Part shown: positions 2,557 to 44,043 of the stretch, piece after piece
Layout: the number at the start of each line of letters is the position of its first letter
How positions within the stretch are numbered: position 1 is the stretch's first letter
Source: an uncultured Gammaproteobacteria bacterium
Lineage (GTDB): Bacteria > Patescibacteriota > Microgenomatia > Curtissbacterales > GWA2-41-24
Length of the DNA: 64,000 nucleotides
Direction of reading: 5' to 3'
Assembly (NCBI GenBank): GCA_964562855.1
Contig: CAZLVB010000001.1
Span: forward strand, 3,614-67,613
Position numbers and translations under genes: made by a program
Notes under the pieces: model-generated
Told to the model about the DNA's origin: nothing
Databases searched by the model: none
The model's input: only the letters and a program-made list of their open reading frames with translations

Positions 2557-4040
2557 GGTATTACCTGGTACAATCTCATGTAGCTATTCCCTACTCCTTT
2601 TTGGAATTTAACAACAAATTTTAAATTTCGATTTGTAATCTCTTTTTGATTCTCGTTAAAAACAAAGTACGTTTTATTAATTTGCGCCTGCTCTAGTGCC
2701 TGTTGAGAAAGTTTATTTGTATCTACCGGCCAAAAGCCGGTGATTTGTACGTTGTGATTACCGAAAAAATAAATCAGAAGGGCATACGGCAGTAGCCCAA
2801 AAGTACCTTCGGTTCCAACGTAAATCTGTTTATCTTTTGATTCGTTACGAATGATTTCAACGACCTCGTTAACTCCGTATCCCGCCGGCCAATCATTTAG
2901 ATACTGGCCCTTATCACTGTCGGCAATTCTTGCCTTTGTAGGGCTAGTCAGGAGAAAGTATGACGAAGAAAGAGGTAATATCAAAAACAAAGCAAAAATG
3001 GCTACGAATGATTTTTTAAATTGAGGAATTCGATCTAAAAAACTAATTACTCCGTGCGACAAAATAATTATTAAAAACGGAAAATAAAAAAGAAGAAACC
3101 TTGGGTAAATTACTTTATTGAAAACGGCCATCGCCAAAAACGGTATCAAAAATAAAAAAGATAAATAAATTATTCTTTTGTTCATTTTGTAGATTCCCCA
3201 AATAGCAGAAATTATAAAGATTAAGAACAGGGGCCATGTAATATAAGACGCAATCCATGTAGAAAGAGTAAAAAGGTTTGATTTAAAGAAAATGAGAGGA
3301 TCTTTTGCCACTTCTGAAAAAGGCCTGATAAATTCCAAGTTTTTGCGACCAATAATGTAAAACAGCGGGGAAAGTCTTAAACTGTTGTACATAAGTTGGG
3401 TTAAAACCACAGAAATGGCAGAAAGCCCAAGCCATTTTAAAAATTTGACATTCCGATTTTTTGCCGTGAAATCAAAAAGCAATAAAGAGAGCGGCAGAAA
3501 ATACAGAAAAAATACCCCAGACGATTTAGTAATCATTGCTAAGCCAATGGCAAAACCTGAAAATATAGATGTATCAAGACGTGGATTTTTGATGAGTTTA
3601 ACTGCAAACAAAATACTCAATATTCCAAACATTGTCAGCAACGAATCAAAAAGGGCCATACGATCGTAGAGTAAAGTGAATGGTAAGATTACATATAGAA
3701 GCGCCGAAAGTTTAGCAACTTTATCTGAAAACAGTTCTCTCGTTAGAAAATAAATTGCGACGACTGAGCCAAAACCGGCCATGACTGAGACTGCTCTTGT
3801 GGCAATTAAAGGATCATTTATAAAATTTTGAAAAATAGCGGCAAGCCAAATAAATAACGGTTGTTTGCCGTCTTCTAGAGAAATAAACCGGTGGGCTGGA
3901 TCGTGAAGAGCGACTTGGGCCCAATAGCTGTAAATTGCCTCGTCGGTGAATATCGGAATAATCTTTAGGTTGATGATTCTTGTCAGAAAATAGACTAAAA
4001 CTAAAAGAGGCCAGAAGAAAAATTCGAATTTGTTTTTCAT
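2553..4040 (-). CDS. ArnT/PMT_2-like GT-C membrane glycosyltransferase
   Basis: 495 aa polytopic ORF with an FTDEAIYSYWAQV motif resembling the ArnT DE(A/T)xY(A/S) loop motif. Overlaps both neighbours by 4 nt. Confidence 0.6.
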   Translation of the reverse strand: MKNKFEFFFWPLLVLVYFLTRIINLKIIPIFTDEAIYSYWAQVALHDPAHRFISLEDGKQPLFIWLAAIFQNFINDPLIATRAVSVMAGFGSVVAIYFLTRELFSDKVAKLSALLYVILPFTLLYDRMALFDSLLTMFGILSILFAVKLIKNPRLDTSIFSGFAIGLAMITKSSGVFFLYFLPLSLLLFDFTAKNRNVKFLKWLGLSAISVVLTQLMYNSLRLSPLFYIIGRKNLEFIRPFSEVAKDPLIFFKSNLFTLSTWIASYITWPLFLIFIISAIWGIYKMNKRIIYLSFLFLIPFLAMAVFNKVIYPRFLLFYFPFLIIILSHGVISFLDRIPQFKKSFVAIFALFLILPLSSSYFLLTSPTKARIADSDKGQYLNDWPAGYGVNEVVEIIRNESKDKQIYVGTEGTFGLLPYALLIYFFGNHNVQITGFWPVDTNKLSQQALEQAQINKTYFVFNENQKEITNRNLKFVVKFQKGVGNSYMRLYQVIP

Positions 4041-5650
4041 CGTGAAGAGATTCCTATATCGAAAACCCGTTGGCCTTCTAAATTGCTGACGGAATCGACT
4101 TTTTGAGCATCGGGAGGCAGTTGTTCCGGACTTGCAATAAAAAGCGCCTTGCCGGTAAGGGTAATATTGCCAAGACTATCACTGAATCTGTATTTATCAA
4201 AAGCCTCTACATCCAAAAAGTAAAATTTGTCTCTTTCGGTCTGGGACGTTTGCCAATAAAGTTTTGGTTCGTACTTAGTATAAAAAAGGAAATAAATATA
4301 TGGCCTTCCTTGGGCTTTTGTGACTACTATTTGATCGACTTGATCGTAATATTTTTGGGAAGCTTCAACAACCTGTTTGTAGCCGTATTGCCAGGAGCCT
4401 GAATAATTTAGAGGCCAGTGAATGTAATACATATGCAAGTAATAGAAAAAGTTGAGAGCCAATAATAAAAACGTTGCAATAAAAAAGATTTTTTTGAATT
4501 TGATTAGTTGATAAAGATAATATGCTCCAAAGGCGGCGATTAGTTGAAACGTTGGCAGAATATGGACCATTCTCAGTGCGTGCGGAGTTTCTCGAGCAGT
4601 GGCAGGACCAAGAGGTGAAACTAGCATCCAGCCAATGATTAACCACCGATACTGATGTTTTTTGGAAAATAAGAAATAAATGCCCGCCAATATTAATGGC
4701 AGATCGACAAGATAAAGTTCGCCAACTTCCTGGATTGAAAGTCTTGGATTAACATCTCCGCGAAAAAATAGGAAACTTGGGTTAAAAGCATCTAAATAAT
4801 GTTTTAAGTATTCTTGTGCATAAAATAAGCGCCGGTTGTGAATTAAATTGGACCACAAGGAATAGTTATCACGTACTTGATATCTTCTTGATTCGTCTAT
4901 GGGTTTTAAATCCCTAAAAATCGTGACTTCATTAAACCTAAGTTTGCCTTCGATAGTAATGGTTGCGAATTTAAATAGTGGCCAAAAAAGAAAAAGTGCT
5001 ACGATTGCGGTCGCAGTAACTAACTTGAGATTCGCCATAATTTGTTTTCTAAATTGCAGAAATAATATAGCCAAAATAAACGGCACAAAGAGCCTCTGGC
5101 CGGTGAACGTGTAGATTGCAGCTAAGAAGGAGAGTGCAGAAAAAAATAAGTAATATGATTTACCGGTCGCGAATTTTAAAAATAGATAGATCCCCAGTGT
5201 TGAAAAAAACAGGCCTAAATTTGCTTCAAAAGCCCCTCTTGAGAACTGTAAGTGCCAAGGGGAAATTGTTAAAAATAAAGCTGCAAGAAGCGAGATAACT
5301 TCTCTCTTAAAAAGTATTTTGGAAATTAAATAAACTAAAATAACAGTCAAAACTCCAAAAAAAGCAGAAGGGAATCTAATTGAGAATTCGTTTAGACCAA
5401 ATAAGGCCACTGACGGTACAGTTGTATAAATATAGCCTGGAGGCTTGTAATCACCAAAAGCTGCAAAATTAGTCAGTGGCATAAATTTACCGTGTTCATC
5501 ATGGCCAGTTTTAAGTATTGAATAAGCGTTGTAACCCAAAGAGGCCTCATCCCAATAAAGCGAGGGCGGGACAGATGAGAGTTTATAAAGTCTTAAAAAT
5601 AAGGCTAGCAGAACAATAGATATTAAGAGAACATTATTTAAATTTTTCAT
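4037..5650 (-). CDS. GT39/PMT-like membrane glycosyltransferase paralog
   Basis: 537 aa; YWDEASLGYNAYSILKTGHDEHGKFMPL and ISPWHLQFSRGAFE motifs. Confidence 0.75.
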   Translation of the reverse strand: MKNLNNVLLISIVLLALFLRLYKLSSVPPSLYWDEASLGYNAYSILKTGHDEHGKFMPLTNFAAFGDYKPPGYIYTTVPSVALFGLNEFSIRFPSAFFGVLTVILVYLISKILFKREVISLLAALFLTISPWHLQFSRGAFEANLGLFFSTLGIYLFLKFATGKSYYLFFSALSFLAAIYTFTGQRLFVPFILAILFLQFRKQIMANLKLVTATAIVALFLFWPLFKFATITIEGKLRFNEVTIFRDLKPIDESRRYQVRDNYSLWSNLIHNRRLFYAQEYLKHYLDAFNPSFLFFRGDVNPRLSIQEVGELYLVDLPLILAGIYFLFSKKHQYRWLIIGWMLVSPLGPATARETPHALRMVHILPTFQLIAAFGAYYLYQLIKFKKIFFIATFLLLALNFFYYLHMYYIHWPLNYSGSWQYGYKQVVEASQKYYDQVDQIVVTKAQGRPYIYFLFYTKYEPKLYWQTSQTERDKFYFLDVEAFDKYRFSDSLGNITLTGKALFIASPEQLPPDAQKVDSVSNLEGQRVFDIGISSR

Positions 5651-5654
5651 CTCG

Positions 5655-6230
5655 CTAATTAAAAAAGATATTATTACATACCGACTTTAATTGCCAATTG
5701 AAGATGAAGTACCAGATAGTTAAGTAGCTTAGGGCAACTAAAATAAATATTGACTGGGCCGATTTGGCAAGTCGCCCGATCCCCCATAGAGAAAACGTGT
5801 ATCTTGACAAGGCTAACAAATAAAACTCCAGTTTGGATGAAGAAGCAATAATTGCGTATAACGGTACAGCTAGGAATGTCAAAAAATGGACTAGAGACCA
5901 AAAACGTTTTTTTCTGGTAATTTCAACTATTCCTAAGATCAGTAGTACAACACCAACTGGCCCGACGGTTTCGAATAACAACTTAGGGGTAAAAGTGGAT
6001 AAATACGATTTGCCAAATTCGTAGAGGCCGGCACTTGCTTTATTATGAAAAAAACGGGCGACGGTTCTTTCTATATCTGTATCTGTAGCCGTTTGTGATT
6101 CGACATTAATTTTTACTGAAAGCGGGATAAAGCTATAATCGATAAATTGCTTACAACCGGTGGTTTGCCACATTCTAAAAGCATAAACTGAAACTATTAG
6201 TAAAATTAAAACTAATTTAATTTTTGCCAT
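5655..6230 (-). CDS. hypothetical membrane protein
   Basis: 191 aa ORF with an N-terminal hydrophobic segment and about four predicted TM helices. It sits between two GT39 paralogs. No recognisable family. Confidence 0.4.
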   Translation of the reverse strand: MAKIKLVLILLIVSVYAFRMWQTTGCKQFIDYSFIPLSVKINVESQTATDTDIERTVARFFHNKASAGLYEFGKSYLSTFTPKLLFETVGPVGVVLLILGIVEITRKKRFWSLVHFLTFLAVPLYAIIASSSKLEFYLLALSRYTFSLWGIGRLAKSAQSIFILVALSYLTIWYFIFNWQLKSVCNNIFFN

Positions 6231-7818
6231 TTATTTTCCAGAGAGAATATATATGACGCCCATTAGTATCATTGGCTGCAGTAAGCCAATCACCGTCGAC
6301 CTTCTTCCATGACGGTGCAACGTATAAAATTCTTCCTTTATTGTACAAATCAAAATCGTCAGAAGTGAAAATGTATTTTGAGAATCCATCCTTGTTGCCT
6401 TCAGTTGCGAACTTTTGTGGATCGTATTTTTTATAAAACAGAACATATATATATGGAACTTGGGTAATGTTGGAGATATAAATTTTGTCAAAAGTATTTT
6501 CGAATTGCACCAACTTTTCTACCATTTGCTTGTTGCCATCTTGCCAGTCCGCGGAAAATTTTCGCGGATAATGAATAAAAAGTAGGTGCACATAGGTTAA
6601 AAATGAATAGACAATGACAATCGAAATCATCAGCTTGATAATGTACGGTTTGTAATTTGAGAAGAGATGGTATAACCCTAACCCTGATAAAAAAGCCATT
6701 GGCACTGCCATTTGAAGAGTCCTGTATGCGTGAGGCGCTGGATTGACGATACTGGCTGGAATGGGAGCAACAAAAAGCATTGCAAGTAATAACTTAACCG
6801 ACTTTTTATCCTGGCCTCTAAGTGCAAAAAGGGCAACAATAATTAAAATTAGCTCAAAAGAAAATATTTGGCCCATGTCGACTTGAGAATGCCTGCCGGT
6901 TTGATCCCCGTTTATGAAAAGGAAGGTAGGCGAGAAATGTTCAATATAGTTGTTTAAAGCGATCGAGGAATAATAAAAAGGCTTGGACCAGTATCCGGAT
7001 AAAAGTCTCAACGGTCTTTTGGAACTTTGATCAAACCCGACTCTAGCCATTTCGAAATCACCAGGATCGAATCCCGACTGGGAAATCGCCCTAGCTCTAC
7101 CATTTGGCGAAAAAGTGAAAGTAAAAAGCGGCAGAAAAATAATTACTCCGACGATCACCGGAATTATTAAAATCTTGATCATTTTTCTGAGTTGGTTGAA
7201 ATAAATTAAAAAAATCGCAAAGATCATCAGGGGGGTAAAGATTCTATAGGCATGATAGCTGTACATTGAAAGATCAAAGAGGATAAAAGCGGCTGTGAAA
7301 TAAGCCCATTTCTTCTTTTCAAACGAATTTAAAAAAATAAATAAGCCACTCATAAAGAAAAAGAGACCGGCCGTTGATTCAAAACCAGCTCTGGAAAACT
7401 GTATATGCCAAGGTGAAATAGCTAAGAATAATGTCGAGAATAAGGATAATTTTTCATTTTTGGTTAATTTGTAAACGATTAAAAAGAAAACTAATACGGT
7501 GATGGATCCTAAAAAAGCGCTTGGAAGACGAACTGCAAATTCATTCAGGCCGAATACTGCAATCGATGGTACAAGCAAATAATGATAAACGGGTAGTTTC
7601 CAGTCACCGAAGCTTTCAAAGAACAATGGCAGAGTAACTCCGTGGTGATCCTTACCCGTTTTAAGCAGGGAGTAAGCATCGTAACCAAAAACCGCTTCAT
7701 CCCAATAAAGCCCAGGCGGATTGAGCCCCAATTTATAGAAGCGTAGAATGCCAGCTAGGATCAAAATCACCAAGAGGATTACAAGCTTATGATTTGAGAT
7801 TTTAATTTTCATTGCCAT
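6217..7818 (-). CDS. GT39/PMT-like membrane glycosyltransferase paralog
   Basis: 533 aa; LYWDEAVFGYDAYSLLKTGKDHHG and ISPWHIQFSRAGFE motifs. Confidence 0.75.
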   Translation of the reverse strand: MAMKIKISNHKLVILLVILILAGILRFYKLGLNPPGLYWDEAVFGYDAYSLLKTGKDHHGVTLPLFFESFGDWKLPVYHYLLVPSIAVFGLNEFAVRLPSAFLGSITVLVFFLIVYKLTKNEKLSLFSTLFLAISPWHIQFSRAGFESTAGLFFFMSGLFIFLNSFEKKKWAYFTAAFILFDLSMYSYHAYRIFTPLMIFAIFLIYFNQLRKMIKILIIPVIVGVIIFLPLFTFTFSPNGRARAISQSGFDPGDFEMARVGFDQSSKRPLRLLSGYWSKPFYYSSIALNNYIEHFSPTFLFINGDQTGRHSQVDMGQIFSFELILIIVALFALRGQDKKSVKLLLAMLFVAPIPASIVNPAPHAYRTLQMAVPMAFLSGLGLYHLFSNYKPYIIKLMISIVIVYSFLTYVHLLFIHYPRKFSADWQDGNKQMVEKLVQFENTFDKIYISNITQVPYIYVLFYKKYDPQKFATEGNKDGFSKYIFTSDDFDLYNKGRILYVAPSWKKVDGDWLTAANDTNGRHIYSLWKINGKN

Positions 7819-9452
7819 TCACCTATAAGGAATATTTCTTTTTTTTGCGAGTAGTCAGAAACTGTATACAGTTTTATAAATCGTTTCTCTCTGCCGATTG
7901 CCTGCAGTTCCTGAGGCGAAATTGCTAGCAATGTCTTTGTTCCGCTAATAGAGTCAATTGCGGCCTCGTCCAAATCCTTGCCGCCGCTATCCCAGTATGT
8001 GGTGCCGAATTTGTATTTACCAATGCGCTCTTGATTAAAGCCGAAATAGTTTTGAGGCTCAATTTTATTGTAAAAAAGATAGAAGATATAAGGTTTCCAG
8101 TAGCGTCCGGTCACAATAACCGAGTCGTAACTATTTTCAATTTCTGCAATTTGGGAAAACATCTGCTTATAGCCGTAAGCCCAGCTCGCACTGTCTTTAA
8201 GAGGGTAGACAAAATAATAGCTGTAAATATAATTTGTAAAAAATAGAATAATTGCAATGACAGCTAATATTTTATAAATCTGTCTCTTAACAAGAACTGC
8301 TTGTAATCCTAATGCGGACAGCATAATTAAAGATGGCAGCATCAATAAAGAGCGCAGTGCGTGTGGTGATTGTTGGGAAAATGCTGCAGGAAGCGGAGAA
8401 AAAACTAACCAGGCCGCAATAAATATTTTTGATTTTAACTCAACTTTTTTCATTAAAATCCAAAACCCTATAAAAATTAATGGTAATTCGAAAAGATAGA
8501 AGTTGCCGTGATACGCAGAATGATGACGCGGATTAGAATCACCCCCGAAAAACAAAAACGGGAATGAAAAGTGCGAAAAATAGTTATTTGCCGCCGTAAA
8601 AATGTAAGGTATTCTTCTGTTTAGGAAAAAATTCGCAAAAACGCTTGGATTTTTTGCCTTGGCATCCACATAATCTACTGTCAGTGATTTGTCCGAAAAA
8701 ATGCTAATTTCGGAAATATGTTTTACTCCCACGGGTCGAAAGGTTTGAATTATTAAGGGGGTAAGAAAAAGTATAGATATCGCTAAGCCCGATAGATAGT
8801 ATCTGACATTTTTGAATATCAATTTATTAAAAACGATAAAGAATACAAGTACTATAAGAGGTACAAACAATTTTGGTGAATGATAGAAAAAGATCGAAGT
8901 CGCAAGCACAGGAATTGAAAATAAAGCTACTAGGCGATTTCCTGTGCCATAAAACAGCATATTGGATCCTAACACCACAAGTGTTAGTGCTACGTTTGCT
9001 TCAAATGCAGCTCTTGAAAATTGCAGGTGCCAAGGGGAAATTGCCAGAAGGGCCGAGGCACTTAGCGCCACCTGTTCGCTAAGTTTGTAATTTGCAAAGA
9101 GATTTTTGGATAAAAAATAGATGCCGATGACTGCAAAAACACCGAAGAGCGCGGAAGGAAATCTTACTGAAAATTCAGAAAGGCCTAAGAATTTTATAAA
9201 AGGTGCGTCAAGATATATATACCCCGGAAGCTTATAATCGTTAAAAGATTTAAATAATATAGGCAGCTTTGTTCCGTACTCATCTGTTTGATTTTTAGCT
9301 ATAGAAAAAGCATTATACCCATTGGCTACTTCATCCCAATATAAAGAAACAGGAAAAGACTCAAGCTTATAAAATCTAAGAATTGCCGCAATAACTGTGA
9401 TTACAATAAGAAGTTTATATTTCATCTGAAACAATGTGGATAGCTGGTTCAC
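7809..9452 (-). CDS. GT39/PMT-like membrane glycosyltransferase paralog
   Basis: 547 aa; LYWDEVANGYNAFSIAKNQTDEYG and ISPWHLQFSRAAFE motifs. Confidence 0.75.
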   Translation of the reverse strand: MNQLSTLFQMKYKLLIVITVIAAILRFYKLESFPVSLYWDEVANGYNAFSIAKNQTDEYGTKLPILFKSFNDYKLPGYIYLDAPFIKFLGLSEFSVRFPSALFGVFAVIGIYFLSKNLFANYKLSEQVALSASALLAISPWHLQFSRAAFEANVALTLVVLGSNMLFYGTGNRLVALFSIPVLATSIFFYHSPKLFVPLIVLVFFIVFNKLIFKNVRYYLSGLAISILFLTPLIIQTFRPVGVKHISEISIFSDKSLTVDYVDAKAKNPSVFANFFLNRRIPYIFTAANNYFSHFSFPFLFFGGDSNPRHHSAYHGNFYLFELPLIFIGFWILMKKVELKSKIFIAAWLVFSPLPAAFSQQSPHALRSLLMLPSLIMLSALGLQAVLVKRQIYKILAVIAIILFFTNYIYSYYFVYPLKDSASWAYGYKQMFSQIAEIENSYDSVIVTGRYWKPYIFYLFYNKIEPQNYFGFNQERIGKYKFGTTYWDSGGKDLDEAAIDSISGTKTLLAISPQELQAIGREKRFIKLYTVSDYSQKKEIFLIGEWQ

Positions 9453-11109
9453 CGTTTATATAATTGATAACTTTCAAGGTTTTGCCTTTGCCGGATAATT
9501 CTTGTGGTGTCCCCACAAAAAGAGTTTTTGCTTCTTGTCGTTGTTGTTCATAATCAATCGGTCTAAAAAGGTATCTATCAAATTTATTTCTATCTTCCAG
9601 AAAACCGCCAGAAACAGTACCCCCCTCCTCTAAATATTTTTTGGGGTCGTACTTTAGGTAGTAGAGCCAAAATTCGTGAGGTTGTTCTAATTTGGTGGAA
9701 ACAATGACACGATCATATCTATCTTTAATCTCTTCAGAGTATAGTGCCGCTTCTCGTCTTCCATATATCCAGGCTTTCGAATATTCGTAGGGCATATGAA
9801 TATAGTATTGATGAAGGTAAAATGAAAAATTCGCAAATAATAGTAAAGCTACGAAAATTGTAAACAATCGTTTATGTTTGAAGGAAGAATAAATAGTGAA
9901 AGCACCAATTGCAGTAAATATCTGATAAGTAGGCAAATATATCTCACTTCTTAGGGAATGAGGAACTCCCCAAGTTACAGATGAGGCAATCGGCGCTATC
10001 AAAAACCACCAAAATATAATAACTTTCGACTTAACCTCAAATTTTTTGGCAATTAAAAAATAAATTCCGGCGAGGATAAACGGAATGTCCCAAAGATATA
10101 AAAGTCCGATTTGTGGAGCATGATGTCTGTCCATATCGGCATTCAAAAAGAGAAAATCAGGTCTAAAATGTGAAAGATAATTTTCAATTAAAATCGGAAT
10201 ATAGACAAGACGACGATTATGGAAAATTCGGCCCAACGTCAGCTGCCCTTGATTTTCGTCCTGTGCAATTAATTCGGCAGCCTTATATTGAGGAGAGACG
10301 TCGGCAAAAATAGTTGTACCTTTAAACCTCATTTGTCCTGCTGTAGAAAAAATAACTGGCAATAAAACTAGTGCAAAAATTAGGGAAATTGCCGCGGGTA
10401 GGATTAGCGATTTGATTGATTTTAAAAGGTTATCTTTAAATAGATAAATTAAAACTATGGAATAAATGGGCACAAAAACTCGGGCATTATGGTACATAAA
10501 AAGATTTACACCGAAAGCAATGGCAGATATGGATAACCAAAGGGTTCTCTTTCGGTCTTTGCTTGTGATTGCCTTCAAAAAAGCCCATGTGGCCGATACA
10601 GACAAAAAAATAGCACTGTTTGTTTCGAAAGCAACCCTCGAAAATTGTAAGTGCCAAGGGGAGATGGCCAACATTAGCGCAGCTAATGTTGGAATGTCCA
10701 ATTGAAACGTTTTCCTTTGGAAAAGCAAATTTCTAATTTCTAATGAATTGACTAATTGGGATGGGGGTCTTGGGAATAATTCTTTGACCATCAAATAGGT
10801 GAATAAAACTGCTAAGACTCCAAGAATTGCCGAAGGTAATCTAACAGCGAAGTCATTGAGTCCGAAAATAGCAATTGAGGGTACTACCAGATAGGTGTAA
10901 ACTGGCGGCTTGTAATCGTCAAATGATCTAAAAGATAAAGGAAATTTATAGCCATATTCGTCCCGGCCAGTCTTAAGAATTGAAAGGGCATTATAACCGT
11001 GGGCAGTTTCGTCCCAGTCAAGACTAGGAGGGTTCTGGCCGAGCTGATAAAACCTCAAGATTGCAGCAAGCAGAATTATTAGAATCAAGTAAAAATTATT
11101 TTTTAACAT
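9415..11109 (-). CDS. GT39/PMT-like membrane glycosyltransferase paralog
   Basis: 564 aa; LDWDETAHGYNALSILKTGRDEYG motif and IPTLAALMLAISPWHLQFSRVAFE, sharing the identical palindromic block with gene 838..2556. Confidence 0.75.
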   Translation of the reverse strand: MLKNNFYLILIILLAAILRFYQLGQNPPSLDWDETAHGYNALSILKTGRDEYGYKFPLSFRSFDDYKPPVYTYLVVPSIAIFGLNDFAVRLPSAILGVLAVLFTYLMVKELFPRPPSQLVNSLEIRNLLFQRKTFQLDIPTLAALMLAISPWHLQFSRVAFETNSAIFLSVSATWAFLKAITSKDRKRTLWLSISAIAFGVNLFMYHNARVFVPIYSIVLIYLFKDNLLKSIKSLILPAAISLIFALVLLPVIFSTAGQMRFKGTTIFADVSPQYKAAELIAQDENQGQLTLGRIFHNRRLVYIPILIENYLSHFRPDFLFLNADMDRHHAPQIGLLYLWDIPFILAGIYFLIAKKFEVKSKVIIFWWFLIAPIASSVTWGVPHSLRSEIYLPTYQIFTAIGAFTIYSSFKHKRLFTIFVALLLFANFSFYLHQYYIHMPYEYSKAWIYGRREAALYSEEIKDRYDRVIVSTKLEQPHEFWLYYLKYDPKKYLEEGGTVSGGFLEDRNKFDRYLFRPIDYEQQRQEAKTLFVGTPQELSGKGKTLKVINYINGEPAIHIVSDEI

Positions 11110-12814
11110 TTCTTAAAACTAGACCGGCTGCCAGCAGGAAAGACCCGAGACTGAGATAATTTGCAAACAACCTTGTTGGAGTTTCTCCAAATTTTACATC
11201 TACTTCGTGGCCACCTTTGGTTAATTTAATGCTCATGAGCCCGGATGCGTCCTGTTCACTGTCAAGATCGAGACTTGTAGTGTTGGTAATTTCAAATTCT
11301 TGATGCAGACTAAGTTTTTGGCCATCAACAAATATTGTGACACCTGGAAAGTAAAACTTATTTATTCTTATCTGGGCGCTTTCGGAATTGACGTCTACCT
11401 CAAAAGACAGTCTATTTGATTTGGCACGTACATTAGACAAACTTGATTCGCCGGATAAATTTTCGACATTTATGCTGGGGTCAAAACCTATTGGTACTTT
11501 GGTGGATTGCCTCCATATCGGAGTAAATTCATTATACTGAGTAGCTGTACCCGAGTAATCGGAAAAATGATCGTCGGGCCACATTAGACTTTGATTAATT
11601 CTTAAGTGATTGCGATTAGCTATCAACACCGCTAAAACCAGAAAGATAAATATCAAACCTGGTTTTAATGCCTTAGCAGCAAAAGCGGCCAGATAGGCCA
11701 ACGATACAGATACAATTCCTAAAAGCCTCCAAGGAAGATCGATAAAATGCAGAAACTTGATTTTTTGCCAAATTATGGTGTTAGGTTTAATCTGCAACAT
11801 TAAAAATATTGCAAGCAAGGCAATTGCAAAGAAAAAAAAGATTAGCCAATTTTCGGCTTTTGAGAAAGACAGTTTCTTTTTAAAAAAAGCATATACCAAA
11901 AGAAAAAACACTAGGAGTAAAATCAATATATGCGCTAAGCCAATTTGGAAAGATATTTGGTCATTAACTGTTCCCGGTAGGTCAAATCCGTATCCCCATG
12001 GAGATCGGATAAGCTGCTTTAAGGTGACAAAATGATTTTCATAGGCAGTTCTTATGATTTCGTCGAATCTTGTGAATCTGCGTTCAAAAACTGACGGCAG
12101 GTAAGTCACGGCTGAAAGCAAAAATCCCCAAATTGCGACAATTGCCGAGTTCCTGAGCATTCGAGCAAAATTTTTGTTGAGCGCCAACACAATTGCGTAT
12201 CCTGCAATTAAAGGGGCTGCCAAGATTGCTACTAAATTCTGAGAAAGTAACAAAGCAGAAAATGAGAGCACACTAATAGCTAGCCATTTCCAAGTATTCT
12301 CTTTCCATAGTTTAGTAATTGAAAATAACAATAAAGGAAGAAAAGTATATGCTAAAAGCTCGGAGATTGAGCCGCGAACGTATATCAAGGAAAATCTGTA
12401 GGGAGCCCACATATAAAACAGTGCGCCCAAAAAGGCCGCTTTTTCAGACTTGAAAACTGCTTTAAGCCAAAGATAGCTAAAAATTCCCGAAAAAATAAAG
12501 CCGACAGCCATCAGAATTTTAAAACTATCTGCGAAAGAAAAACCCAAGAAATGAATTACTGAACCAAAAGCATAGGGTAACGGATATATGTAAACGAATA
12601 TCGGGCTTCCTAGGCCGTTGTAGAAGTTGCCAGCAAAACGTGGCGGAAATTGGCCATCGCTAAGGGCTTGATAATAAGCTGCAATGCGCGCCGCATGGGT
12701 TTCGCCGTCGTGACTCGTGTAAAAACCCGGAAGAGTCAAACTTTTAAGCGCAGGTGCTGAAAGGATAATCAGAGCAGCTATAGCCAGAAAATTCGGATTA
12801 TACCAAAACCTCAC
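11096..12814 (-). CDS. large polytopic membrane protein, putative GT-C-type glycosyltransferase (unnamed family B)
   Basis: 572 aa; N-terminal motif FYTSHDGETHAARIAAYYQALSDGQFPPRF...NGLGSPIFVYIYPLPY shared with 26484..28226 and 34100..35710. Many TM helices, then a C-terminal soluble domain. Confidence 0.5.
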   Translation of the reverse strand: MRFWYNPNFLAIAALIILSAPALKSLTLPGFYTSHDGETHAARIAAYYQALSDGQFPPRFAGNFYNGLGSPIFVYIYPLPYAFGSVIHFLGFSFADSFKILMAVGFIFSGIFSYLWLKAVFKSEKAAFLGALFYMWAPYRFSLIYVRGSISELLAYTFLPLLLFSITKLWKENTWKWLAISVLSFSALLLSQNLVAILAAPLIAGYAIVLALNKNFARMLRNSAIVAIWGFLLSAVTYLPSVFERRFTRFDEIIRTAYENHFVTLKQLIRSPWGYGFDLPGTVNDQISFQIGLAHILILLLVFFLLVYAFFKKKLSFSKAENWLIFFFFAIALLAIFLMLQIKPNTIIWQKIKFLHFIDLPWRLLGIVSVSLAYLAAFAAKALKPGLIFIFLVLAVLIANRNHLRINQSLMWPDDHFSDYSGTATQYNEFTPIWRQSTKVPIGFDPSINVENLSGESSLSNVRAKSNRLSFEVDVNSESAQIRINKFYFPGVTIFVDGQKLSLHQEFEITNTTSLDLDSEQDASGLMSIKLTKGGHEVDVKFGETPTRLFANYLSLGSFLLAAGLVLRNVKK

Positions 12815-12839
12815 ACTACAAATTCTAGCACAAAGAATT

Positions 12840-13907
12840 TTACGGTTGAGGGTAAATTACTTTTCCTTGTGGGTTACCGGCAAATCGGCCATTTTCAAAA
12901 ACAATTTGGCCACGAATTACAACTTTTTTGACCTTCCCCCTACCCTCCATGCCAACAAATGGCGTCCAGCCGCATTTGGTAAATAAACCTTTATTGGAGA
13001 TCTTGTATTTTTTAGCAGTGTCGATCTCCACATAGGTTTCCTGTTGGTTTGGAAGACTGAAAATTATTCGGGGATTAGTGCAAGCCAATTCTATCAACCG
13101 TTCAAGACTAATTCTCTCTTGAGTGACAGCATTTAACATTAAAGGCAAAGTCGTTTCTAATCCGGGAACTCCATATTTAGGCGAGGAGTGATCGTATTTT
13201 TCTGCAAGCGTATGGGGGGCATGATCTGTTGAAATCATATCTATTTTGTCAAGATTTAACCACAGTTTTTCTTGATCTTTTTTGGATAAAAGTGGCGGTT
13301 TCATCACTCCTTGCGGACCGAGTCTTTTAAGGTCACTCTTGTTCAGAAAGAGGTGGTGGGGGCAAACTTCGCTGCTAATATCAAGACCATCGCTTTTGGC
13401 CTTATTGACTGCCCTAATCTGGTCAAATGCGATATGACAAATGTGAAGTTTTTTCCTGTATTTCCTGGCTAATCTGATGGCTGCCTCAACGGTTTTCCCT
13501 TCAGCGTGAACCATTATCGGCAAAGGACTATTCCACAATTTAAAAATTACTTCTCTGTCTGCCGCTTTATCAATCAGAAGCGGGCCTGTCGTTTGGTTCA
13601 TGTAGACTTTTAGGCCAAAAACTTTTCGCCGTACTTGTTTAAAATATTTCGTAGATAAGGAAGTGCCCCCAAAATTAAAACCGACATCGCACCAAATTTT
13701 GTCTTGAGCAAGATTTATTTTGTCCTCTAAGTCGTTGGGGGTAGCAGTCGGCGGAGAGTTATTTGGCATATCCAAAATCTGGGTATAGCCGCCGGCAACA
13801 GCCGCTTGGGTACCAGTATAGAAATCTTCTTTGTACGTCGCCCCAGGTTCTCTCAGATGAACATGGACGTCGACAAGTCCGGGGAGCTTTATTAAATTAC
13901 TTTTCAA
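12840..13907 (-). CDS. pyrC: dihydroorotase
   Basis: 355 aa; metal-binding motif LPGLVDVHVHLREPG and ISTDHAPH typical of the dihydroorotase/amidohydrolase family. Confidence 0.75.
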   Translation of the reverse strand: MKSNLIKLPGLVDVHVHLREPGATYKEDFYTGTQAAVAGGYTQILDMPNNSPPTATPNDLEDKINLAQDKIWCDVGFNFGGTSLSTKYFKQVRRKVFGLKVYMNQTTGPLLIDKAADREVIFKLWNSPLPIMVHAEGKTVEAAIRLARKYRKKLHICHIAFDQIRAVNKAKSDGLDISSEVCPHHLFLNKSDLKRLGPQGVMKPPLLSKKDQEKLWLNLDKIDMISTDHAPHTLAEKYDHSSPKYGVPGLETTLPLMLNAVTQERISLERLIELACTNPRIIFSLPNQQETYVEIDTAKKYKISNKGLFTKCGWTPFVGMEGRGKVKKVVIRGQIVFENGRFAGNPQGKVIYPQP

Positions 13908-13979
13908 ATTAGATCTGATTTTAGCATATGGATCATTTTTGCTTGTATAATGAAAATTACTCAGAGGGCAAATTCAATT

Positions 13980-15209
13980 ATGAAGATTAGTATTTCGAAT
14001 GTAATTATCCTTTTAATCTTCTCTTTTGCTGTTTTTTCCGGATTTATTACTTATCGGGCCAGTTGGTTCAATATCGACAAACACTTTTCACTTCTTGCAC
14101 AGAGTTTCCTTAAAAATGACTTGTTTCTTGATCCTAACAATCTTCCAAATGGGGATTACGTAGATTATCAAGGAAAGCAATATCTGTTTTTTGGACCGAT
14201 GCCTTCAATCTTACTTATGCCTCTCGTTGCATTTTTCGGAAAGAATTTTCCCCAAATGACACTATCTATTTCTTCACTGATCATAATATTTCTGGGCATT
14301 TTCTTTTTATCCAAAAAAATAAAATTTTCGACTGCAGACTCATTTTGGCTTGCCAACTTTTTTGTCTTCGGGACAGTTCTATATTTTGTCGGCTTAGTAA
14401 ATATATCAGCATATCTTGTCCAAGCCGTTGCGACCGCCTTTGTAGTACTGGCGCTTTTGGAATATTTTACAAAGAGACGGTGGTTTGTAATTGGAGTACT
14501 TGTCGCGGCAGCAGGGGCTACAAGAATTACGCTATTCGGCATGATGCTATTTTTCCTTTTAGAAATATTTCGAATGAGAGACAAAATAGACGTTAAAAGA
14601 AATCTAACTTTATTACTTATCCCGGTAATCTTTTCCTTATCAGTGCTTGGGCTATATAATTTTCGGCGATTTCATTCGCCTTTTGACACCGGCTATACCC
14701 GTAACGTCTCGGTTTTGGATAAAAATTACTACAATTATAAAGAAGGCTGGTTTAGCGTTAAGCACATACCGGCAAATCTGTATGCTCTATTTATAGCAAC
14801 TCCCAAGCCGGTATTAAAGGAAGGAATAGAATTTGTTTTGAAGTTTCCATATCTAAAGGTAGATCATTTGGGAATGGCTATATGGATCACTTCCCCGCTT
14901 TTTATCTACCTATTAAAAATTAAGAGGGAAGGTTATACAATTTCGGCATTTTTGACGATTCTTGCAATGTCAATCCCTTCACTTGTCTATTTTGGTATTG
15001 GAATCTCGCAATTCGGCTACCGCTACAGTTTGGATTTTTTACCTCTACTATTTTTAATTCTTTTATCCGCATTTGCCCAAAAAAAATTGCCACCTTTTTC
15101 TAAATTGTTAATTCTAACAGGTATAATTTTTGATACTTTTTACATGGCCAGTATTTGGAATGATTATCCTCTCTTGCATTTTTGGGATTACCTTGGGATT
15201 AATTTCTGA
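13980..15209 (+). CDS. polytopic membrane protein (possible GT-C-like glycosyltransferase); the only plus-strand gene
   Basis: ORF 13950..15209 (419 aa) with about 11 TM helices. The second in-frame ATG at 13980 has a GAGGG about 10 nt upstream, and a TATAAT-like box overlaps the first ATG, so 13980 is the preferred start. Confidence 0.5.
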   Translation: MKISISNVIILLIFSFAVFSGFITYRASWFNIDKHFSLLAQSFLKNDLFLDPNNLPNGDYVDYQGKQYLFFGPMPSILLMPLVAFFGKNFPQMTLSISSLIIIFLGIFFLSKKIKFSTADSFWLANFFVFGTVLYFVGLVNISAYLVQAVATAFVVLALLEYFTKRRWFVIGVLVAAAGATRITLFGMMLFFLLEIFRMRDKIDVKRNLTLLLIPVIFSLSVLGLYNFRRFHSPFDTGYTRNVSVLDKNYYNYKEGWFSVKHIPANLYALFIATPKPVLKEGIEFVLKFPYLKVDHLGMAIWITSPLFIYLLKIKREGYTISAFLTILAMSIPSLVYFGIGISQFGYRYSLDFLPLLFLILLSAFAQKKLPPFSKLLILTGIIFDTFYMASIWNDYPLLHFWDYLGINF

Positions 15210-16020
15210 ATATTCCTACTTTAACTAAACCCGTCTGAGATATTAAATATGTAAAAACTGTCCATAAAGTCATCAGGCCATATTTTGCAGATCTTCTGAA
15301 ATTAATGGAGGACGCCTCGGGAAAATATTTACAAGGAACAGGAATCTCTGAGATATTAAATTTCTTTGCTAAGGCGTAAATAAGAATCTCTTGATCGAAG
15401 ACAAAATCATCCGAGAATTTCTGATACGGAATTGTTTTTAAAACCTTGGCGGAAAATGCCCGGAAGCCCGTATGATACTCCGATAAATTCAGGCCCATTG
15501 ATAAATTTTCAATTAATGTTAAAAACCTATTCGCAAGATATTTCCATAAAGGCATTCCGCTTGACAATACCTGATATCGAGTTTGAATTCTGGAACCTAA
15601 CATTATCTCGGCTCTGCCATTAACAACCGGTTCGCAAAGGACTCCTACAAGTTTTGCGTCATACTGATAATCTGGGTGAACCATAACTACAATATCCGGA
15701 TTCCTTTTGAGCGCCTGATCATAGCAGGTTTTTTGGTTACCACCGTAACCCTTATTTTTTCTATGTAGATAAACAGTAATCCCTAAATTTTCAGCCTTTT
15801 TGACTGTCCGGTCTTGCGATGCATCATCGACAAGAATAATCTCTTTGATTAGATCTTTGGGTAGATCGTCAAACGTTTTCTTGACAGTTTTCTCTGCATT
15901 GTAGGCAGGCATGACCACAATTATTTTGGGCTTTAATTTTGAATCCCAAAGGACGTTATGATTTTTCAAATTTAACCAAGACCTCCCGATCAGAAAGTGG
16001 TGAGTGATATACAGTGCCAT
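15199..16020 (-). CDS. GT2 family glycosyltransferase (polyprenyl-phosphate sugar synthase-like)
   Basis: KIIVVMPAYNAEKTV...ILVDDASQDRT GT2 signature. The annotated N-terminal about 25 aa overlaps the upstream gene and the GC-rich insert, so the true start is probably internal, near 15969. Confidence 0.65.
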   Translation of the reverse strand: MALYITHHFLIGRSWLNLKNHNVLWDSKLKPKIIVVMPAYNAEKTVKKTFDDLPKDLIKEIILVDDASQDRTVKKAENLGITVYLHRKNKGYGGNQKTCYDQALKRNPDIVVMVHPDYQYDAKLVGVLCEPVVNGRAEIMLGSRIQTRYQVLSSGMPLWKYLANRFLTLIENLSMGLNLSEYHTGFRAFSAKVLKTIPYQKFSDDFVFDQEILIYALAKKFNISEIPVPCKYFPEASSINFRRSAKYGLMTLWTVFTYLISQTGLVKVGIFRN

Positions 16021-16915
16021 GCGGTCCTCGCTTGCGCTGCGGGCCTAGAGTGGTGAGTGACGAGTCGAAAATAAGATAAGGCAATTTTGTCAGGGCCCAA
16101 ACGAAACCGGTAAAGAAAGCTAAATCGAGAGACGCTAGAGCTTTGAGAAAATGGTAAGGGAGCCATAGGAGATGTTGAATAATCCAAAAAGGATCGGCAA
16201 TATTTTTCCAAACAAAAAGGAATTGATTTCTATAAGAAACGGCCTTTACTAAAAACAAAGATTTTGAGGTTTTAATGGCGCCCTCCTGGTGAAAATGGTC
16301 GACTTTGGATTTTAGTTCGAAAAAACATTTATATCCTGATCGCCAAGCTCGCAAAGATAGATCTATATCTTCCCAATAAAACGGCGCAAATACTTCGTCG
16401 AAGCCATTAAGCTCTAAAAATTTTTTTTTATCAAAAATTCCAGAACCTCCCGAAACCCAAAGGGTTTCTCCGCTGTTTGACGGTAATTTAAAGTGACTCA
16501 CGAATCCTTTCGTAAAAGATGCGCCACCTTTACCGCGAATTACCACCTTACCATCCTCAGGACTCATATCAGCAAAACCCACGGCAAACATTTTCTGATC
16601 TTTAAAATATTTTAGTGAATCTTTAAGAAAATTTTCTTTCGGTAAAACATCGGAGTTGAGAAGAACAACCAGGCTTCCAGAGGCTGTTTTAACTCCTTCG
16701 TTAACTGCCGCAGCGAACCCGCGGTTTTGCGAAAATTGTATTATTTTTATTTTCCTAAAATTTTTTTTGAGATATTGTACCGACTGATCAGTTGATGCGT
16801 CATCAACTACAATAATCTCGCAGTTTTTGCAGTTCTTTATAACAGCCGGAAGGTTTTTGGCAAGCAGGTGCCTGCCATTGTAATTAGGAATGATTACTGA
16901 TATTTTTTCTTCCAT
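15956..16915 (-). CDS. GT2 family glycosyltransferase
   Basis: ISVIIPNYNGRHLL...IVVDDASTDQS...DxD-like motifs; 319 aa. The C-terminal 27 aa are encoded by the GC-rich insert. Confidence 0.7.
   Translation of the reverse strand: MEEKISVIIPNYNGRHLLAKNLPAVIKNCKNCEIIVVDDASTDQSVQYLKKNFRKIKIIQFSQNRGFAAAVNEGVKTASGSLVVLLNSDVLPKENFLKDSLKYFKDQKMFAVGFADMSPEDGKVVIRGKGGASFTKGFVSHFKLPSNSGETLWVSGGSGIFDKKKFLELNGFDEVFAPFYWEDIDLSLRAWRSGYKCFFELKSKVDHFHQEGAIKTSKSLFLVKAVSYRNQFLFVWKNIADPFWIIQHLLWLPYHFLKALASLDLAFFTGFVWALTKLPYLIFDSSLTTLGPQRKRGPHGTVYHSPLSDREVLVKFEKS
15996..16060. repeat. 12-bp direct repeat AGTGGTGAGTGA (15996-16007 and 16049-16060) flanking a 41-bp GC-rich segment (about 63% GC); insertion-like element at the junction of two GT2 genes
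   Basis: Exact 12-mer found twice, 53 nt apart. The intervening sequence tatacagtgccatgcggtcctcgcttgcgctgcgggcctag is compositionally anomalous for this roughly 35% GC window. Confidence 0.5.
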
Positions 16916-19221
16916 CCAATTAAAAATAAAGCCAGTAATATTACCGAGGCTGCCGAAATATATAAACCATTATAAAATGAGCGGGGTCTGAATCTAAATT
17001 CAACAATGTGCTCACCTTCCGGGATAAGCACTGACTGAAACATGTAATTGACCTTTTTTATTTCCGTCATTTCGTCGTCAATAAATGCTTGCCATCCCGG
17101 GTAATAAGGATTGGAGACGACAAGTGGGGCTTTTTTGTCTGAGCTTACCTTCAGTCTAAAAAATTGATCTTCATATTTGATAAAATCAACATTGCTTTGA
17201 AATTCTTGTCTTGGAAACGAAAACGATGTCGAAACAGAACTTTCTGACAAGTCAAAATTTTTGTCAATCATCTTTTCTAGCTCTTCTTCTGGGCTTCTAA
17301 CCTGTATCACTTCTTTAACAAAAAAGGCTCTCGGTAAGGAATTTTTGTCTTTAAAAATTTTAGTTTCACCTTCTTGAAATATTTTTTCCAATCCCTCTTT
17401 ATTTAAATCGTCGAATGTGACTATGTACCTGGTGTTTAAAAAATTTGATATTTTGCTATCAAATTTTTGGGGTGTAACAAAACGATTAAATGAGCCTGGT
17501 TCACTAACTTTCCCAGACTCCCAAACAGTAACTAATTGAGCATAATTTTTGAGAAATAGCGGGTCATAGCCTGCGACATTTTCTAATTTATAAACAGCAG
17601 AAGTGTTTGCGTTTAGAATTCTTCGATCGGTTGTAAGCAATCTGAAAGGTTTTGGCTGGCTTGAGAGAAAATCGGTTGTATTTGTATTTGGAAAAATCCA
17701 GGATAATTTTGAAAATGACGTAAATTTATAAGCGAAACGAAAAAGTTCCGCCAAAGTTAATACTAAGATAGCTGATATGATTAGTGGTCTTAGATTCTTC
17801 AGGACTGACGAGAGTAAAAGTAATAAGGTGAAAGAAGCCGCTACAGTGACCGGAAGAATTAAATTTCGAAATGCAACTCGATAGGGGTCAAAGCCGTAAA
17901 TCTGAGAAAAATTATTTCTATTTAATAAAGTGTAAGCGAATAAAAATGTTAATCCAGCTAACACAGACAAGGCTACAAGAAATATTTGTTTAGATTTAGA
18001 TTTTTTTTGTAATTGTTCAAATCCGAAACTGGCAAGTGTGACTAGAGAAAAAGCTAATACAAAAATGATTCTTGAGGGTTGCATTGAGGAGAGAAACGGA
18101 AAATTATATTTGTAAGGAATTATTGATATCGGGTTTCTTAAAGCAAGCAATGCCGAAACAATTGCAATAGATACAAAAAAAATGTGCACTTTACTTCTTT
18201 TCCCAAACAAAATTGATAGTGCAAAAATAAAAGGGATTATCCCAACATAAGGAACAAACTCAGCATAATTCCACACGCCCCAATAATTGTATGTAGTTGG
18301 ATTACCAAAATAGTCGGGGGCTACAATCTGCGCAAGCTGCTTAAAGGGTATAAACCAGTCCTCTCTTTGTGGAAAATAGCCCTGATCAATACTTCTTGCA
18401 GAATAATTAATAAATTCTAAAGACGGTAAAATTTGTATTGCTGTTGCACCTAAACCTAAAATAACAGTTGCTAAAGTCGGGATAACTAAATCTTTTCTTG
18501 GAGACTGAAAGAACTTAAAAAGCAAGTAAATCAAAATTAAAGATATTGAATAAAAAGCGGTCTGCCAGTGACCAGCGAAAACTATCTGGGAGATAGTAAA
18601 TGCTAAAAGCAAAAGCCAAAATTTAAGACGACTTTTAAAAAATTTATTGATTGAGTAAAGACTTAATGGAAGCCAAACCGCAGCTGCAGTTACGGTTCCC
18701 CACATAAGCCATACCATAAAAAAACTAGTAAACGGTAAGACTATTGCTCCAAAAAGAGAAGCCAGATTGGAAAGATCAAGGCTTTTTAAAAAAAGATACA
18801 TAAAAAATGCGGTTAAAATCGGGATCAAAATTATTTCTGTTGACCAAGCAGCATTAAAAGGTAGAATGAAAAATAAGACGTTAAAAATCTGAAATGGTGC
18901 GGATTGAATGTTGGCTAGCAAAGGCTGTCCAGAGAAACTGTATGGATTCCAGAGAGGAAGTTCAAGCTTTTTAAAATTTTCAATCGTCAGATATCTCCAG
19001 GGATAGGTTTGCAAAACAGGATCGGTAGTTAAGGGATTTTTGACTGGAAACTTGCCAGGAAGAAAGCCGTCGAAAGACTGGTCGCGCCATGGATGATAAA
19101 GGCCAAGTAGACTATCTGTGGGGATAGGTACTTTACCGGTGAGTAGTTTTGGCAAAAAAAAGGAGAAAACGATTATACAGGCAAGGATGGCGAAAATCGA
19201 CTTAAAAAAGTATTTTTTCAT
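16894..19221 (-). CDS. YfhO-like large GT-C membrane glycosyltransferase
   Basis: 775 aa; about 13 N-terminal TM helices followed by a large C-terminal extracytoplasmic domain. Paralogous to 35780..38194. Architecture resembles the YfhO/GtlB lipoteichoic-acid and cell-wall glycosylating GT-C enzymes. Confidence 0.5.
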   Translation of the reverse strand: MKKYFFKSIFAILACIIVFSFFLPKLLTGKVPIPTDSLLGLYHPWRDQSFDGFLPGKFPVKNPLTTDPVLQTYPWRYLTIENFKKLELPLWNPYSFSGQPLLANIQSAPFQIFNVLFFILPFNAAWSTEIILIPILTAFFMYLFLKSLDLSNLASLFGAIVLPFTSFFMVWLMWGTVTAAAVWLPLSLYSINKFFKSRLKFWLLLLAFTISQIVFAGHWQTAFYSISLILIYLLFKFFQSPRKDLVIPTLATVILGLGATAIQILPSLEFINYSARSIDQGYFPQREDWFIPFKQLAQIVAPDYFGNPTTYNYWGVWNYAEFVPYVGIIPFIFALSILFGKRSKVHIFFVSIAIVSALLALRNPISIIPYKYNFPFLSSMQPSRIIFVLAFSLVTLASFGFEQLQKKSKSKQIFLVALSVLAGLTFLFAYTLLNRNNFSQIYGFDPYRVAFRNLILPVTVAASFTLLLLLSSVLKNLRPLIISAILVLTLAELFRFAYKFTSFSKLSWIFPNTNTTDFLSSQPKPFRLLTTDRRILNANTSAVYKLENVAGYDPLFLKNYAQLVTVWESGKVSEPGSFNRFVTPQKFDSKISNFLNTRYIVTFDDLNKEGLEKIFQEGETKIFKDKNSLPRAFFVKEVIQVRSPEEELEKMIDKNFDLSESSVSTSFSFPRQEFQSNVDFIKYEDQFFRLKVSSDKKAPLVVSNPYYPGWQAFIDDEMTEIKKVNYMFQSVLIPEGEHIVEFRFRPRSFYNGLYISAASVILLALFLIGWKKKYQ

Positions 19222-24083: not shown

Positions 24084-24110
24084 TTGTAAAATTATATATC
24101 AGCAGTATCT
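24084..24110 (-). promoter_or_regulatory. extended -10 promoter (CTGCTGATATATAAT) 7 nt upstream of the GTG start of gene 22587..24083; leaderless or very short leader
   Basis: Minus-strand sequence reads ...tagatACTGCTGATATATAATtttacaaGTG. The TGnTATAAT-like core recurs at three other gene starts in the window. Confidence 0.45.
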
Positions 24111-24133
24111 AACGAAGCGAGGTGAAGCTGAGC

Positions 24134-34081: not shown

Positions 34082-34099
34082 TTGTCAGATGAATTTAGG

Positions 34100-44026: not shown

Positions 44027-44043
44027 AGTCTGATTATACTGCT

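Follow-up and report, generated by a model that had tools for sequence, protein, structure and literature searches.

Three paralogous compact YfhO-like membrane proteins with a GT-C fold in a glycosyltransferase gene array of a Microgenomates genome

A 64-kb stretch of contig CAZLVB010000001.1, analysed at its full length and called the window hereafter, has a GC content of 37.6%, is coded almost wholly on the minus strand and carries three genes for related polytopic membrane proteins. An earlier note on this DNA, made from its letters alone, had described these genes as an unnamed paralog family with a distinctive N-terminal motif and had tentatively compared their layout with that of glycosyltransferases of the C fold class (GT-C). 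All three open reading frames (ORFs) are present at exactly the coordinates given there, on the minus strand, which the note had left unstated, and are described here from the points of view of sequence, predicted structure, family relations and gene context.

11096..12814, minus strand: paralog 1, 572 aa, GTG start; putative compact YfhO-like, PF10131-type GT-C membrane protein
26484..28226, minus strand: paralog 2, 580 aa; 653 bits against the hidden Markov model (HMM) of the family
34100..35710, minus strand: paralog 3, 536 aa; matches PF10131

An all-against-all BLASTP comparison of the 53 large ORFs of the window aligned the three proteins pairwise across nearly their full length, at 28-32% identity and with E values of 1e-78 (paralogs 1 and 3), 1e-50 (1 and 2) and 4e-65 (2 and 3). 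Because of these values the three genes are considered true paralogs and not chance resemblances. The mean column identity of their three-way alignment is 57%. Among all window proteins, they alone scored strongly against an HMM of the wider family (622-654 bits), the next-best matches being two long YfhO proteins at 49-72 bits.

The shared N-terminal motif is recognizable in all three members of the alignment and reads SHDGETHAARIAAYYQALSDGQFPPRFAGNFYNGLGSPIFVYIYPLPY in paralog 1, IHDDQ-QIARLFVFDKALKSGQFPVRWVDGLGFGFGYPLFVFYPPLVY in paralog 2 and SHDGEWMVIRFTAFHQTLVDGQFPVRFVDRLNGNFGYPVLNFLYPLPF in paralog 3. It lies in the first extracytoplasmic loop (EL1) of the predicted topology.

12578..12712, minus strand: EL1 motif, paralog 1 residues 35-79, from conservation (n=90)

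Numbered on paralog 1, the layout of the motif is H35-D36...R43...G54-Q-F-P57-x-R59-[WF]...G69-x-P71...P78-L79. Residue conservation was counted over 90 diverse family members that are only about 30% identical. The earlier note had held that a lack of conserved acidic residues in this loop would speak against a glycosyltransferase; position 36 is occupied by Asp in 89 of the 90 members and by Glu in the remaining one (99% and 1%). The basic residues R59 (100%), R363 (99%) and R43 (98%) and the histidine H35 (93%) are conserved as well, as are G54 (94%), P57 (81%), G69 (99%) and P71 (99%), while K99, R147 and E152 each reach 91-92%. All near-invariant polar residues fall in predicted outer loops or at the outer ends of helices. 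A strict regular expression for EL1 missed 35 of 98 full-length relatives because the G-Q-F element varies (GNIP, WHIP, GMFP, HQIP, LQIP); on inspection, the Asp and P-x-R-[WF] are kept in most of the complete sequences among these misses. Occasional substitutions were seen, such as P-P-Q-W in one relative, and several of the listed ORFs are truncated at their N-terminus.

The structure of paralog 1 was predicted with AlphaFold2 from a 90-sequence alignment, giving a model with a predicted local distance difference test score (pLDDT) of 95.5 and a predicted template modelling score (pTM) of 0.94. It contains 11 core transmembrane (TM) helices and a twelfth, C-terminal TM anchor, where the earlier note had counted about ten helices and missed the anchor. 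TM1 spans residues 7-27 and is followed by loop helices at 37-52, 72-75 and 79-89; TM2 covers residues 94-121 and the helices from TM2 to TM11 end at residue 399. Strands occupy residues 450-542 and the terminal helix residues 546-571. A soluble beta-rich C-terminal domain, previously put at about 200 aa, does exist in the form of a beta-sandwich, within an extracytoplasmic region that is shorter than proposed, at about 146 aa (residues 400-545).

11189..11467, minus strand: extracytoplasmic beta-sandwich, paralog 1 residues 450-542; conserved (Y/F)-F-P-G-W...DG...G-x-H, of which paralog 1 reads FPGV
11102..11179, minus strand: C-terminal TM anchor, residues 546-571, followed by the basic tail RNVKK; from the AlphaFold2 model, hydropathy and loop charges

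A Foldseek search of the Protein Data Bank with this model returned GT-C enzymes only among its top 30 matches (yeast and human STT3, AglB, PglB, Pmt4, AftD, ArnT, EmbA/B and DPY19), and the polytopic TM core matches solved GT-C enzymes in fold. The values of the structure-match table are as follows.

Pmt4, 22.2
AglB, 21.7
STT3B, 21.1
AftA, 19.2
Pmt2, 18.9
AftD, 18.5
PglB, 17.5
ALG12, 17.1
ArnT, 16.7
first unrelated fold, 8.4

The GT-C-like layout is thereby borne out, and the resemblance to a non-glycosyltransferase fold that had been named as possible counter-evidence did not appear among the leading matches. Counting charges, the inner loops hold 7 K/R in 23 residues versus 9 in 83 for the outer loops. 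From this bias we infer a cytoplasmic N-terminus, an extracytoplasmic EL1 and beta-sandwich and a cytoplasmic basic tail in the modelled protein.

Within this common plan, the orthogroup of paralog 1 deviates at three places. It carries Q192 where the family has a His that is 92% conserved, it reads FPGV in the region of residue 492 versus FPGW in the others, and its beta-sandwich holds an insertion of about 15 residues (508-522) with low pLDDT. The FPGV variant and the insertion are also present in P0123, a close relative of paralog 1. Because of these three features, an altered acceptor or donor specificity is suggested for this orthogroup.

The closest named relative of the three proteins is a long YfhO-family protein encoded directly upstream of paralog 3, and a second long YfhO gene is found elsewhere in the window.

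35780..38194, minus strand: long YfhO-family GT-C (804 aa), PF09586 E 5e-25; directly upstream of paralog 3
16894..19221, minus strand: second long YfhO-family GT-C (775 aa), PF09586 E 1e-21

Comparison of the family profile with the single YfhO sequence 35780..38194 by hhalign gave a probability of 97.6%. When the profile was instead aligned globally with one made from 30 long YfhO proteins of related loci, the probability rose to 100% (E 5e-46) over 525 columns, end to end. Each of the two long YfhO proteins of the window is matched by the family HMM in two segments, at HMM positions 65-400 (the TM core) and 431-546 (the C-terminal beta-sandwich and terminal TM helix); the compact proteins lack an equivalent of about 250 YfhO residues (roughly 435-680). 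Conversely, a jackhmmer search started from a window YfhO protein recruits the compact family at E values of 1e-75 to 1e-100. Homology to YfhO thus extends over the TM core, the beta-sandwich and the terminal TM helix, whereas the full YfhO architecture, of about 770-860 aa with extra TM helices and a large extracytoplasmic domain, is not present in the paralogs. On the strength of the full-length hhalign alignment, the two-piece HMM match and the jackhmmer recruitment, the three proteins are best described as compact, shortened YfhO-like GT-C proteins at the divergent edge of PF10131.

The compact family and long YfhO have in common TM1, a first loop that is long and contains a '...G-x-[FI]-P-x-W' element, a TM core with H192, P240...E244 and P-x-R363, a beta-sandwich with the motif 'Y-[FY]-P-G-W...DG...G-x-H' and a final TM anchor. 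Both are also encoded beside GT2 genes and flippases, in the manner of multi-component transmembrane glycosylation systems (PMC8035078). They differ in length (536-580 aa for the compact proteins versus 775-804 aa for long YfhO): long YfhO has additional TM helices and, between core and beta-sandwich, a large extracytoplasmic insert, and the first loop of the compact proteins is about 35 residues shorter. A set of residues is specific to the latter and not conserved in long YfhO: H35-D36, R43, R59, K99, PYR...YVRG(147) and E152, as well as Y134 and P138-Y139. YfhO-family enzymes transfer a single sugar from undecaprenyl-phosphate-sugar (Und-P-sugar) to teichoic acids (PMC8035078) or to Ser/Thr-rich protein regions (PMC12041528).

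At the level of curated families, paralog 3 matches Pfam PF10131 (PTPS_related) with 29.9 bits for a gathering threshold of 26.4, through residues 75-387 and profile positions 5-312 of 621. Even at E<=1 this profile found nothing in paralogs 1 and 2, which remain below every threshold of Pfam and NCBIfam; NCBIfam returned nothing for any of the three, and none of them matches Pfam YfhO (PF09586; gathering threshold 28.5 bits) at E<=1. When 80 diverse family representatives were scanned singly against Pfam at E<=1e-3, PF10131 was found in 59 (best E 1.4e-19), YfhO in 12, STT3 in three, the AftD GT-C domain in two and PMT_2 in 19, the last being weak matches attributed to clan-level homology. 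PF10131 is itself listed in the GT-C clan CL0111, with function unknown (PMC7801869). The description of the family as unnamed is not supported: the PF10131 threshold is passed by paralog 3 and the profile found in 59 of the 80 relatives. Paralogs 1 and 2 are sub-threshold, and both the EL1 motif and the C-terminal module fall outside the model, which paralog 3 matches from residue 75 on.

The suggestion that the family might be specific to this lineage is not sustained. An exhaustive profile search gathered 6,160 clusters (50% identity) at E<=1e-30 and 18,682 at E<=1e-3. In a motif-seeded scan of one genome per species, with the 3-sequence alignment as seed, loci were found in Curtiss-, Levy-, Gottesman-, Ames-, Roizman-, Davies-, Beckwith- and Chisholmbacteria, in other Patescibacteria, in Anaerolineae and in one metagenome-assembled genome (MAG) of Pacearchaeota, a DPANN archaeon. 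The database homologs of paralogs 3 and 1 belong mostly to Candidatus Curtissbacteria and other Microgenomates (50-72% identity); for paralog 3, ortholog identities are 52-72%, and the name 'YfhO family protein' occurs among these orthologs. Many homologs carry precomputed PF10131 and/or PF09586 assignments, including many paralog 1 orthologs with PF10131, and their names vary between 'hypothetical', 'YfhO family protein', '6-pyruvoyl-tetrahydropterin synthase-related protein' and 'glycosyltransferase family 39 protein'; in NCBI records, orthologs appear under the second or third of these names. By these sequence relations, the three genes appear to be a divergent edge of the catalogued, widespread and uncharacterised PF10131 family, close to YfhO.

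Two observations concern the records in this sample. Loci L004, L006, L008, L012 and others come from MAG records titled 'uncultured Gammaproteobacteria' or 'Pseudomonadales' and are syntenic with Microgenomates glycosylation arrays, with up to 50-52% protein identity. Because of this synteny the titles are held to be unreliable and look like mislabelled taxonomy, not like the presence of the family in Proteobacteria. Six representatives of 1,093-3,329 aa (P0121, P0122, P0124, P0127, P0187 and P0230) show two to six profile-matched stretches each. They may represent GT-C modules that are fused or arranged in tandem, or else gene calls that were left unsplit.

The position of the conserved Asp was compared with the active sites of known GT-C enzymes, in which D55/E56 of ArnT, D77/E78 of Pmt1 and D281/D282 of EmbA form a shared loop-1 motif whose Asp contacts the acceptor and/or a metal (PMC7801869). 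Alignment by hhalign of the family with the PMT_2-like proteins of the window starts from TM1 (probability 98.3%, E 1.6e-14) and places the PMT_2-like D-E motif (D in 72 and E in 69 of 76 sequences) opposite family positions 37-38, one column off D36; an ungapped register would pair D with D and H40 with H. In turn, the PMT_2-like protein 39403..40887 aligns with ArnT (5EZM) at E 4.5e-10, its F-D-E falling on P-D-E of ArnT. The segment PDEGRYAEI holds the sole Asp-Glu pair of 5EZM within the aligned part of the first loop, and we take this pair to be D55/E56 by residue count, assuming a 3-residue chain offset. Placement of D36 at the ArnT D55/E56-type catalytic position, within one alignment column, is supported by these alignments. 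The alignment of the motif with catalytic residues envisaged by the earlier note is thus obtained for its Asp, with a register that is uncertain by one residue. To the same precision, the conserved acidic residue of loop 1 corresponds to ArnT D55, Pmt1 D77 and PglB D56. A conserved Arg before TM10 is another GT-C hallmark (PMC7801869); R363 occupies the outer beginning of TM10, and long YfhO proteins retain it too, as PSR.

These likenesses coexist with clear differences. In ArnT and the PMT_2 proteins (GT83/GT39-like; 5EZM, 5F15) the loop-1 motif is D-E, versus H-D-G/D in the paralogs, which also lack MIR domains and have a different C-terminal domain made of a beta-sandwich and a TM anchor; none of the three matches Pfam PMT or PMT_2. 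Relative to STT3, AglB and PglB (GT66), the paralogs have no WWDYG-type motif and no loop-1 DxD, and their extracytoplasmic domain is unrelated and much smaller.

The three genes are part of a dense array of GT-C genes, all on the same strand.

838..46851, minus strand: glycosylation array with 18 GT-C genes
Starts at 838, 2553, 4037, 6217, 7809, 9415, 22587, 28201, 29635, 39403, 40887 and 44044, minus strand: the 12 PMT_2-like genes
38191..39381, minus strand: GT87/MptA-like GT-C
25033..26508, minus strand: Wzx/MOP-type flippase, Pfam Polysacc_synt_3 E 3e-52; immediately downstream of paralog 2
31055..31852, minus strand: GT2 (265 aa), candidate polyprenyl-phosphate-sugar synthase, Pfam Glycos_transf_2
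15199..16020, 42265..43020, 45664..46851 and 63254..63937: similar GT2 genes

The 18 GT-C genes comprise 12 PMT_2-like, three compact, two long YfhO and one GT87/MptA-like gene and cover nearly half of the window; the largest contigs of this lineage reach about 1 Mb. The window also encodes nine GT2 and one GT1 glycosyltransferases, a methyltransferase, the flippase, two UDP-glucose dehydrogenases, several epimerases, an RmlD-like reductase and a nucleotidyltransferase. Gene spacing is tight: paralog 2 shares 26 nt with the PMT_2-like gene upstream of it and 25 nt with the flippase gene on its downstream side, the overlap of paralog 1 with the next PMT_2-like gene downstream is 14 nt, and a gap of 69 nt separates paralog 3 from the long YfhO gene 35780..38194 that precedes it. 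In NCBIfam comparisons, five GT2 genes best resemble polyprenyl-phosphate-sugar synthases (AglJ, PgfS, PpgS, dolichyl-phosphate hexose transferase and ArnC), with scores below the curated cut-offs.

This organization recurs. In another Curtissbacteria genome, the genes around the ortholog of paralog 1 are collinear with those of the window, and Microgenomates loci share the order GT2, GT87-like, PMT_2, compact, YfhO, PMT_2, compact, compact, GT2, Wzx, three GT2, YfhO and GT1. Neighbours were counted in 80 related loci, around 142 ORFs called family copies by best BLAST hit. A PMT_2-like gene lies upstream of 50 and downstream of 19 of these copies, another family copy adjoins upstream in 47 and downstream in 43, and a long YfhO gene does so in 11 and 12, respectively; a PgfS-like GT2 follows downstream in 22/142 and Wzx in 15/142. 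By a stricter HMM criterion, there are 98 full-length compact members in 64 loci, half of which (32/64) contain two or three. In multi-component transmembrane glycosylation, synthesis of the Und-P-sugar falls to a GT-A enzyme, its movement to a flippase and the transfer to a GT-C enzyme (PMC8035078). The array bears the genetic signature of such systems.

We consider it likely that each paralog is an active compact GT-C enzyme of the PF10131/YfhO lineage, using a polyprenyl-phosphate-sugar donor at the outer face of the membrane, with Asp36 as the key catalytic or acceptor-binding residue. The outward-facing conserved Arg and Lys, the neighbouring synthase-like GT2 genes and the Wzx-like flippase are indirect hints of this type of donor. 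In the pathway that we propose, a cytoplasmic GT2 of the same array would attach a monosaccharide to polyprenyl phosphate, the lipid-linked sugar would be carried to the outer face by a flippase, which may be the neighbouring Wzx-like protein, and the GT-C enzyme would there pass the sugar to an acceptor. The enzyme would start with a cytoplasmic N-terminus and TM1, followed by an extracytoplasmic loop of about 66 residues with two juxtamembrane helices, then by ten more TM helices, the extracytoplasmic beta-sandwich, the TM anchor and a cytoplasmic basic tail. Asp36 and its neighbour His35, where the first loop helix begins, may contact and activate the acceptor in the role of the Asp of ArnT D55 / Pmt1 D77 type, the outward basic residues R59, K99, R147 and R363 may bind the donor phosphate and the beta-sandwich may help to hold the acceptor. 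By analogy with known systems, the sugar could go to a surface polymer (glycopolymer) or to a Ser/Thr-rich surface protein, and donor sugar or acceptor site is most likely what distinguishes the paralogs from one another.

Several points weigh against such an enzyme. No sequence-level match to any solved structure was found among Protein Data Bank chains, and the beta-sandwich taken alone gave generic, weak fold matches only. The equivalence of D36 comes from a two-step profile alignment, with the one-residue uncertainty in register already mentioned. R59, K99, R147 and E152 are not conserved in the long-YfhO profile and for this reason their proposed roles would be family-specific and are speculative. 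The GT2 donor-synthase assignments all lie below curated cut-offs, and the orientation of the topology was read from a simple count of charges combined with model helices and alternating sidedness. As for the literature on PF10131 or PTPS_related, our search found the TMTC paper only and no experimental study of this family or of its compact clade; a search by protein name gave an unrelated Clostridium paper. Haloferax AglS, a Dol-P-Man mannosyltransferase, might belong to PF10131, and no argument here is built on it.

Other explanations of the same proteins were weighed against these data. They could be oligosaccharyltransferase-type GT-C enzymes that, like STT3, AglB or PglB, transfer a preassembled glycan en bloc from polyprenyl-diphosphate to protein. 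Motif searches disfavour this possibility, which we judge improbable: neither WWD in the three paralogs nor DxD in residues 1-95 was found, so that the signature of these enzymes is absent. About as improbable, and if anything slightly more so, is that the paralogs are catalytically inactive GT-C-fold subunits serving as scaffolds or acceptor-binding partners of the neighbouring GT-C enzymes. Such a role has a precedent, since PIG-U/GAB1 is a GT-C-fold subunit of this kind in the glycosylphosphatidylinositol (GPI) transamidase. Against it, D36, R59, R363 and about 30 outward residues are near-invariant at about 30% identity, which argues for an active site rather than a scaffold, and the conserved Asp occupies the canonical catalytic position of GT-C enzymes.

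A last alternative is that the proteins are not glycosyltransferases at all but polytopic transporters, flippases or proteases that resemble GT-C enzymes in their number of TM helices. In its favour, neither Pfam nor NCBIfam returned a match for paralogs 1 and 2, and the Pfam name '6-pyruvoyl-tetrahydropterin synthase related' is uninformative. Still, transporters of the major facilitator superfamily (MFS) and GLUT types appear in Foldseek at E>0.1 only, with TM-scores of about 0.12-0.14, the strong structural matches are all GT-C and the full-length homology to YfhO is unambiguous. We regard this explanation as extremely unlikely, and a fold other than GT-C is effectively refuted by the structural matches.

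Taken individually, these genes are ordinary: they encode divergent proteins of a GT-C family that is already catalogued, under a misleading Pfam name that obscures its glycosyltransferase nature. What is gained is a high-confidence fold and a candidate catalytic Asp for PF10131-type proteins, and the recognition of this compact family as a shortened YfhO. The dense conserved GT-C array is more notable than the three genes alone, and its 18 GT-C genes suggest that these organisms invest heavily in surface glycosylation; the array also supplies concrete targets for heterologous expression. A bolder proposal, which we advance tentatively and think rather doubtful at present, is that the compact PF10131 clade forms a functionally distinct GT-C family, with its own H-D...R...[FI]-P-x-R-[WF] signature, its members serving as dedicated steps of a conserved multi-GT-C line that builds a complex outer surface coat of glycan or glycoprotein. 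This first-loop signature is covered by no Pfam model. If the proposal were true, the coat made by the Microgenomates assembly line would be unlike known teichoic-acid or O-mannosylation systems and would have a bearing on the host interaction of the ultrasmall cells of the candidate phyla radiation (CPR). Our search found no literature linking YfhO or GT-C to CPR bacteria.

Some further genes of the window deserve mention. Two pyrimidine-biosynthesis genes lie inside the array, a dihydroorotase-like gene (12840..13907, minus strand) and an aspartate carbamoyltransferase gene (43118..44026, minus strand). The former immediately precedes the ortholog of paralog 1 in loci L001-L003 and L005-L007, and in L004 a single gene separates the two. 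Amid the PMT_2-like run, a 191-aa ORF without Pfam match (5655..6230, minus strand) is found at the same place in L001, L003 and L004 and may encode a small accessory protein of GT-C enzymes. Only two ORFs of 150 aa or more lie on the plus strand of the window. One of them (13950..15209, 419 aa) is likewise without Pfam match, and its homologs have the same opposite-strand position in L003, L004 and L006. At the high-coordinate end, beyond the sugar-nucleotide genes, housekeeping genes are found (57302..58450 and 60580..61668, minus strand), among them those for an M23 peptidase with a PcsB-like coiled coil, a peptide chain release factor and proteins of the Sua5/YrdC and Exo_endo_phos families.

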